Shown here one piece after another: positions 1-691 of a stretch of DNA of 691 bases. This stretch comes from Escherichia coli (GTDB taxonomy: Bacteria > Pseudomonadota > Gammaproteobacteria > Enterobacterales > Enterobacteriaceae), in NCBI RefSeq assembly GCF_003334815.1, contig NZ_QOWO01000121.1, one strand, 5' to 3'. The notes beneath the pieces are model-generated. The model saw nothing but the letters and a program-made list of their open reading frames with translations, did no database searches and was not told the origin of the DNA. The position numbers were made by a program, and so were the translations under genes. Numbering within the stretch: the first letter of the stretch is position 1; each line of letters begins with the position of its first letter.

Positions 1-38
1 GCCAGCGGCAGGCCGCGATGGTCGCAGTGGTACAGGTG
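1..38 (-). other. Probable N-terminal edge of the 'RHS repeat-associated core domain' ([13 protein letters not shown]…), continuing beyond the left window edge
   Basis: Translation of minus-strand codons 218-230 gives [13 protein letters not shown], a YD-like motif (Y-H-C-D-H-R-G-L). In my recollection of E. coli Rhs proteins this immediately precedes …EYDEWGNLL…[12 protein letters not shown]…DPIGL, the end of the conserved core. Domain assignment is by recollection of the family consensus, not an HMM run. Confidence 0.55.
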
Positions 39-691
39 GATTTTTCGCGCCGGCGTGTACACCGGGTCCATCTGGTTTTGCATCTGCTCCACCGTCAGGC
101 CGCACGATGCCAGCCAGCGGCGGCTTTCCTCACTCACCCGGTCAGCCAGGATTTCACTTTCCAGCCGGTCGAGCATCTGCACCAGCACCGGCGGGAACAC
201 CACACTGCCACCGTCTTCGCCGCCGGACTGCTGAAGGGTATCCGCCAGGCTGCGGCGCTGCGTTTTCGCCAGCTCACCGGTGGCGGTTTCAACCCTGATG
301 AGTGGCGTGAAGCTCCCCGGCTGATAAATCGTCTGGATGCGGGTTCTGTCGTTCTGTATCGTGGTCAGGCGGTCGCCGTCCCAGCCGTACCAGGTCACTT
401 GCGGTTTCCGTGACAGCGACATCCAGCCCGTCAGGTCCCGTTCACGCCGCCATACCCGTTTTGCCACCCTGCGGCCCAGCGGGTCGTAAAGATAGCGACT
501 TTCGACCAGCGGCTCTGCATATTGTGTCCGCGTGTAGTGCACCAGCCGGTGCTGACTGTCGTAATGGTACCGGTGGGTGCGCTCATCATCCGTGCGGATA
601 ACCCCTTCCGGGATGAGGTCGGTTTTCTCTGTCAGCCTGCCGTGACGGTCATACCGGTAAAGATAGTGCGCGTCACGGGCGATACGGTTAT
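1..691 (-). CDS. rhs: Rhs-family YD-repeat protein, conserved core region (internal fragment, truncated at both window edges; codons in frame from + coordinate 689 down to 3, last 2 nt form a partial Ala codon)
   Basis: Seen in sequence: the minus-strand frame is open over the full window (229 codons, no stop), whereas the other frames are interrupted. The translation contains repeated YD-type motifs ([57 protein letters not shown]) matching the Rhs/YD-repeat consensus (Y-x-Y-D-x-x-G-R-L). Third codon positions are strongly G/C-biased in this frame. Recognition from memory, not a database search: the peptide is near-identical to the E. coli K-12 Rhs core (RhsA/B/C type). The paralog (rhsA/B/C/D or an orthologue in another enterobacterium) cannot be assigned from 691 nt of conserved core, so the symbol is the generic family name. 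Confidence 0.9.
354..395 (-). other. YD-repeat motif-encoding segment ([14 protein letters not shown]) within the Rhs CDS
   Basis: Direct translation of minus-strand codons 99-112; Y-G-W-D-x-x-(D)-R-L-T variant of the YD motif. Confidence 0.65.
453..497 (-). other. YD-repeat motif-encoding segment ([15 protein letters not shown]) within the Rhs CDS
   Basis: Direct translation of minus-strand codons 65-79; good match to the Y-x-Y-D-x-x-G-R consensus. Confidence 0.8.
531..569 (-). other. YD-repeat motif-encoding segment ([13 protein letters not shown]) within the Rhs CDS
   Basis: Direct translation of minus-strand codons 41-53; Y-x-Y-D…R-L pattern, degenerate (no Gly). Confidence 0.65.
627..665 (-). 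other. YD-repeat motif-encoding segment ([13 protein letters not shown]) within the Rhs CDS
   Basis: Direct translation of minus-strand codons 9-21; matches the YD-repeat consensus Y-x-Y-D-x-x-G-R-L-(T/I). Confidence 0.75.

Follow-up and report, generated by a model that had tools for sequence, protein, structure and literature searches.

A conserved Rhs core segment at the Escherichia coli rhsC locus, found in full-length genes and in orphan fragments ahead of alternative putative toxin tips

The literature has covered Rhs cores, the PxxxxDPxGL boundary at which they end, low-G+C tips, immunity genes and orphan cassettes since the 1990s, with structures added between 2013 and 2021. Here we analyze a 691-base stretch of Escherichia coli DNA (assembly GCF_003334815.1, contig NZ_QOWO01000121.1), hereafter the window, which very probably is a G+C-rich piece of such a polymorphic-toxin core, read on the minus strand and belonging to the rhsC locus, with the end of the core, a low-G+C tip and an immunity gene lying beyond its left edge. 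The Rhs core and cassettes found here are already known biology, and the sequence is annotated in thousands of genomes.

The closest described system is the rhsC-ybfB-ybfO(orphan)-ybfC element of E. coli K-12 (RhsA/B/C/F subfamily; UniProt P16918), which occupies the same locus with the same gene order at 99.4-100% nucleotide identity: loci carrying an exact copy of the window have the same or nearly the same core end, tips, motifs and downstream genes, the difference being that MG1655-type records match at 99.4% at best, with 4 differences. The main/orphan locus of Salmonella Typhimurium (Koskiniemi 2014, PMC3967940; Starsta 2020, PMC7043789) likewise consists of a full-length gene followed by a 5'-truncated orphan with an immunity gene; there too, the core sequence common to main gene and orphan stops at the PxxxxDPxGL codons, and some genomes have the orphan tip on the full-length gene, but the tips and immunity genes are others and the locus lies in a type VI secretion system (T6SS) island. 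T6SS Rhs effectors of known structure (Rhs1/Tre23, 7pq5; P. protegens RhsA, 7q97; Tse5, 8cp6; Salmonella bongori, 8qjd; Acinetobacter Tse15, 8uy4) have the same combination of a YD-repeat shell and a plug holding a pair of DPxGL-type motifs spaced by 17 residues, and they align with the E. coli protein from a KIHLYHCDH-type motif to the cleavage site (E 1e-15 to 1e-32). Unlike these, the E. coli protein has a non-YD insert of about 75 residues, a DUF6531 domain, no significant PAAR domain and no adjacent vgrG or eagR. Finally, the Ntox34/Imm-HEAT combination (PMC3482391, PDB 1oyz) follows one of the 34 exact copies, in strain MT102, at the rhsC locus instead of rhsA.

The window is 62% G+C, and a single minus-strand frame among the three translated is open throughout (window 1-689, 229 codons, no stop); bases 2-1 (GC) start an Ala codon that continues this frame leftwards. 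All 229 residues match positions 941-1169 of the 1261-position NCBIfam model NF041261, 'RHS element core protein' (E 1.5e-145, 486.8 bits), and because of this match and of 100% identity to annotated rhs genes, the frame is not a chance one. Within it, TIGR01643 (YD_repeat_2x) is significant at residues 33-55 (E 3.5e-5); Pfam gives a weak match, PF03527 'RHS protein', to residues 217-229 (model positions 1-13 of 38, E 0.014), which the window edge clips. A full-length gene with an identical copy (locus L004) scores 2645.5 bits against NF041261, for a cut-off of 2000, and has YD repeats across the protein (TIGR01643, E 6e-40). The window is an ordinary internal piece of the conserved E. coli Rhs toxin shell, and holds the following features:

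1..691, minus strand (frame 689 to 3): internal segment of the rhs core open reading frame (ORF), RhsC-locus type; NF041261, 100% identity in 34 E. coli genomes.
1..44, minus strand: start of the PF03527 'RHS protein' motif and last shell residues; Pfam match at residues 217-229, 14 residues before TIGR03696.
39, 60, 76 and 88, minus strand: four differences from the main rhsC of K-12-like genomes; base-by-base comparison with L001:3130-3820.
57..281, minus strand: apparent non-YD insert of about 75 codons (residues 137-211); phmmer alignment gap against solved Rhs shells.
525..662, minus strand: recognizable shell YD repeats (residues 10-24 and 33-55); TIGR01643, with weak Pfam RHS_repeat matches at residues 10-24 and 38-55.

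Plus-strand ORFs (for instance 18-413, 131 residues) were rejected because the RHS core match sits in the minus frame; all eight mechanically listed ORFs, on both strands, are shadows of the G+C-rich rhs gene. Residues 137-211, between the last YD repeats and KIHLYHCDH, look like a family-specific acidic insert. The phmmer alignment with Tse5 (8cp6) breaks off at query residue 136 and restarts at 212, leaving about 31 residues as the Tse5 counterpart, and the remaining PDB Rhs matches begin at residues 212-226, that is, after the insert; NF041261 still covers it contiguously.

A megablast of the window against 5426 complete E. coli genomes matched 3885 of them, typically at several sites (median five per genome); 1700 records have a best site with at least 99% identity, and in 34 this site is an exact copy. 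Annotation was read for six exact-copy loci (L001-L006), and all six copies are at the rhsC locus: in L001-L004 the copy is flanked by ybfA (with kdpFA upstream) and ybgA-phrB, with ISAs1 remnants among the neighbors, and in L005-L006 it adjoins ybfB or ybfC. K-12-derived strains other than the MG1655 type have the exact sequence, as do wild strains; it may be in the main gene or in the orphan, and strain EBJ001 has it in both.

What follows the window on the sense strand was read in four loci, comprising eight core copies in total. In all eight, the core extends for 92 more residues with the pattern ...A-L-[VI]-S-[TK]-EG...YDEWGNLL... to D[P/S]xGL. A DPIGL motif lies at +194..208 bp (base pairs) from the left edge of the window and a second motif, D[P/S]xGL, at +260..274 bp, 17 residues after DPIGL; the second motif is DPLGL, or DSMGL in copies with a YbfO-type tip (L001 5951-5965). 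The core thus ends 274 bp past the left edge and the variable tip starts at base 275, from where the sequences are unrelated between contexts. Four unrelated tips of 130-164 residues were seen after the same core, followed by ybfB, ybfC, a yibA-like gene and yhhH, and this small downstream gene starts at +688..730 bp. At the junction, G+C falls from 0.58-0.67 to 0.41-0.48 in one 120-bp step and reaches about 0.3 in the next gene (ybfC); tips have 0.37-0.43 against 0.53-0.59 for the core.

An earlier note, made from the letters of the window, had read the minus strand as open and quoted its C-terminal peptide, which is exact (window 1-44, in the 229-codon translation without stop). It had taken this peptide for the entry into the RHS repeat-associated core domain: the motif is rather the start of PF03527, 14 residues before TIGR03696, and the core domain does follow. 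Its expectation that the core would end at DPxGL and give way to a hypervariable tip of lower G+C agrees with the copies read, which also contain everything it proposed to look for in an extended sequence (a pair of DPxGL-type motifs, a drop in G+C, a tip of 100-200 residues and a small gene); rather than running on through more YD repeats with no DPxGL within 300 bp, the frame reaches DPIGL at +194..208. The distances fared less well. The tip had been placed 200-250 bp to the left, a range that holds only the first DPIGL, so that the estimate was 25-75 bp short, and the immunity gene, placed at the same distance, is in fact the gene that starts 688-730 bp out.

In the extended protein, TIGR03696 (Rhs_assc_core, 76 positions) spans residues 244-321 (E 8e-24), starting 14 residues past the window, and NF041261 shares its end point at residue 321; core constructs of Rhs and TcC proteins in the PDB (8qjd, 8qjb, 8qja, 6l7i, 4o9x) also terminate at the residue aligned to 321. 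Query residues 226-325 align with residues 1245-1346 of Rhs1 (7pq5), and the C-terminal plug of Photorhabdus Rhs1 comprises residues 1263-1357 (Jurenas et al., PMC8636562); taken together, these limits put the predicted start of the plug near query residue 244, in agreement with TIGR03696, so that the window would stop in the last shell strands, 14 residues short of the plug. For the window's own flank, we infer TIGR03696 and the double motif from identical and near-identical copies.

In Rhs1, the cleavage site comes after a pair of DPLGL motifs spaced by 17 residues; cleavage requires the Asp of the second one and is abolished by D1338N (PMC8636562). The spacing of the E. coli motifs is the arrangement shown to direct C-terminal autocleavage in Photorhabdus Rhs1, and by analogy with such homologues a mechanism can be proposed. 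The residues encoded in the window would form the final turns of the YD-repeat shell, immediately ahead of the C-terminal plug; the plug, by homology, would be an aspartyl autoprotease cutting after the second DPxGL-type motif; cleavage would free a toxin tip held inside the shell; and this tip, of about 150 residues, would then be neutralized by the product of a small cognate immunity gene. For autoproteolysis and immunity, the argument is homology to Rhs1 and to the Dickeya and Salmonella pairs; shell encapsulation, toxin function and the recombination mechanism discussed below would likewise follow from homologues.

To find out which tip follows, searches were run with the window prolonged into each tip, and their matches were compared by coordinate with the 34 exact copies; two direct look-ups complemented this. 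The copies are joined to three toxin/immunity modules:

26 of 34 records: YbfO-type tip with ybfC; in 15 of them a 5'-truncated pseudogene behind rhsC-ybfB, in 11 a complete 'RHS element core protein' gene.
7 of 34 records: RhsC tip with ybfB; full-length genes.
1 of 34 records (strain MT102): Ntox34 (RhsA-type) tip with the HEAT-repeat gene YibA; orphan fragment.

Because identical copies carry three different modules, the window cannot tell which tip follows. By this census, the tip on its left is most probably of YbfO type with ybfC (about 3/4 of records), or else the RhsC tip with ybfB (about 1/5). The single variable tip envisaged in the earlier note is thereby replaced by at least three alternative tip/immunity modules, and 16 of the 34 exact copies are in orphan fragments. 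In MT102, the tip matches Ntox34 (PF15606, E 3e-42) and the downstream gene is YibA (HEAT_2; NF007244, 466 bits; PDB 1oyz, E 5e-183), corresponding to the Ntox34/Imm-HEAT toxin/immunity pair listed by Zhang et al. 2012 (PMC3482391).

Main rhsC and the downstream orphan share a tract of 1,045 bp at 97.9-98.9% identity (L001 4919-5962 vs 3048-4091; L003 6790-7833 vs 4919-5962), which ends at the D[P/S]xGL codons and wholly contains the window (L001 5001-5691). The PxxxxDPxGL demarcation and dissociated tips have been described (PMC3150448, PMC2935791), as has 'C-terminal displacement' (Jackson et al., PMC2935791), and in Salmonella, recombination placing the orphan tip on the main gene was shown experimentally (PMC3967940). 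Ending where it does, the E. coli tract may be a substrate on which homologous recombination could swap tips in this manner. Some genomes have a recombinant appearance: in L004, the tip of the orphan, with ybfC, is joined to a full-length gene, and the locus lacks both the RhsC tip and ybfB. From gene order only, L004 looks like the deletion product of recombination across the shared tract; ten further exact-copy records are annotated in the same way.

Position within this tract also bears on whether the sampled copy belongs to an expressed gene. It might be a silent orphan cassette, a ybfO-like pseudogene without start and without the 900-odd N-terminal residues, which would store a tip and immunity module and also offer a target for recombination; we give this a chance just short of even. 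In 16 of the 34 exact-copy records, the match lies in a coding sequence flagged 'incomplete; missing N-terminus', directly after rhsC-ybfB, with the features of a 5'-truncated orphan module (its own immunity gene, homology up to the demarcation motif), and orphan core homology begins just 82 bp upstream (sense) of the right edge of the window, with a sharp rise in G+C. These features are absent from the other 18 records, where the identical sequence lies inside a complete gene of 1397-1399 residues (1399 in L004), and the window holds nothing that distinguishes an orphan from a full-length copy. A window inside the shared core tract is thus not assignable to one toxin, or to an expressed gene as opposed to a silent orphan, and scans that flag such windows therefore need flanking sequence.

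Other explanations concern what lies to the left. A tip of RhsC type with the membrane protein YbfB, which would be a secreted permuted papain-fold (NlpC/P60, LRAT, PPPDE-like) cysteine hydrolase acting on the envelope, is unlikely: it is present on only about one fifth of identical copies, it has no Pfam, NCBIfam or PDB sequence match, and its fold comes from a model built on 13 sequences, for which a Foldseek search of the PDB returned nothing significant (best Aichivirus 2A, E 1.5). For that last reason, the assignment of the RhsC tip as a permuted papain-like hydrolase, with predicted catalytic His30 and Cys118, stays tentative; the permuted papain-fold families considered for it were NlpC/P60, LRAT/PLAAT (H-box/NC), PPPDE and YiiX. 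We consider it improbable that the core-homology region in addition drives internal expression of a short toxin, forming in the producer a type II toxin-antitoxin-like pair, as reported for the Salmonella rhs main/orphan locus. The internal expression site would have to be beyond the window, some 170 bp to the left of coordinate 1. Scanning L001 4540-7100 for the sigma-70 consensus gave 8 sites against 4.8 +/- 2.5 expected, none of them inside the window, and the promoter and terminator scan found no enrichment and nothing within the window. There is finally a very slight chance that the source carries a module absent from the searched genomes, that is, a truly new toxin. In its favor, Rhs tips vary greatly, and at least three modules are seen joined to the same core, the array also holding a fourth (DUF4329/yhhH); against this, all 34 exact matches among the 5426 complete genomes resolve to three known modules.

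Certain points weigh against the reading of the window as the core of a self-cleaving toxin with a cognate immunity gene. At the YbfO-type junction the motif is DSMGL, not DPxGL, and relatives have DPMGL, DPKGL, DSLGL or DALGL there; as judged from the alignment, the Pro of the second motif is not conserved in the YbfO-type tip family, while its Asp and GL are. A literature search gave no autocleavage, toxicity or immunity experiment for YbfO-type or RhsC tips. No delivery route is evident from the first 500 residues of the L004 protein, with no significant PAAR match (Pfam, E 0.24), or from the annotation of the locus (L001-L004), with no vgrG, eagR or T6SS genes. The identity of the module and its full-length or orphan state, moreover, come from genome frequencies only (18 full-length vs 16 orphan).

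With respect to delivery, the first 500 residues of the L004 protein (2225-3724) contain DUF6531 at residues 46-123 (E 7e-18), and the protein also has RHS repeats. The product of the E. coli rhsC locus fits the 'neighbourless/orphan-locus' Rhs class, which is mentioned in PMC6730261 and PMC7216683, rather than the T6SS PAAR-Rhs effectors. Over residues 2-20, the same protein resembles the end of the PAAR model (its final 19 positions), and this may be what is left of a lost PAAR domain.

The earlier note had located any new biology to the left of coordinate 1. All modules (ybfO/ybfC, rhsC/ybfB and rhsA-type/yibA) are long known and already annotated in RefSeq, so the tips are not new as sequences; Ntox34/YibA is described and the YibA structure is solved. 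What stands of the claim is that the two common tips are without a family: Pfam and NCBIfam have none for the YbfO-type tip, the RhsC tip, YbfB or YbfC; PDB sequence searches with both tips and YbfC returned no relatives (none for the RhsC tip even with a profile); and only genome-scale or in silico papers were found on the function of ybfO, ybfC, ybfB and the RhsC tip. What novelty remains is beyond the window, with the two tips most common at the rhsC locus of the best-studied bacterium, which have no family, fold or activity assigned. The RhsC tip now has a tentative prediction, a papain-like hydrolase paired with a membrane-embedded immunity protein; the unstudied YbfO-type tip is carried by E. 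coli K-12 itself.

Both tip families are narrow: their matches are Rhs tips, and those named are enterobacterial (E. coli, Shigella, Salmonella, Buttiauxella, Phytobacter). For the YbfO-type tip, word-indexed single-sequence and profile searches returned only Rhs tips, one of them at 42% identity. This tip has about 152 residues, is proline-rich (21 Pro) and contains three conserved Cys and the motifs SPYDYTxYCxKW...DYxP...GYxCxEPYxFP...AGIDD. Its AlphaFold model, from a 10-sequence alignment, was kept out of the fold search because of its low confidence (predicted local distance difference test, pLDDT, 54; predicted template modelling score, pTM, 0.36). The source of P0015 (Phytobacter ursingii) calls a YbfO-type tip 'putative deoxyribonuclease RhsC'; this appears to be propagated annotation, and nothing found here supports a nuclease.

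The partner genes ybfB and ybfC each share 1-4 bases with the stop codon of the rhs ORF before them. YbfB (L001 4547-4873) has three hydrophobic segments, and YbfC (L001 6421-6990) has one, N-terminal and signal-peptide-like, starting with MKRVLFFLLMIFVSFGVIA followed by DC. These segments suggest that both are putative envelope-located immunity proteins and that the corresponding toxins would act on the envelope. For the YbfO-type tip, we would tentatively, and with more doubt than conviction, propose a toxin of undescribed fold and activity, the signal-like segment of YbfC suggesting a target in the periplasm or envelope.

In MT102 (L002 4904-9023), the rhsC locus carries an RhsA-type module (Ntox34 and YibA), an RhsB-type module (DUF4329 and yhhH) and a HEAT-repeat pseudogene. 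DUF4329, the fourth tip, has been cited as an RNase domain (PMC7216683). Either rhs loci have been reshuffled among each other in this strain, or the array is an artefact of assembly across repeats.

The four differences between the window and the main rhsC of K-12-like genomes all fall within 50 bp at the tip-proximal end, and the other 640 bp are identical. This clustering would fit gene conversion between the main copy and the orphan, its breakpoint lying close to the tip.
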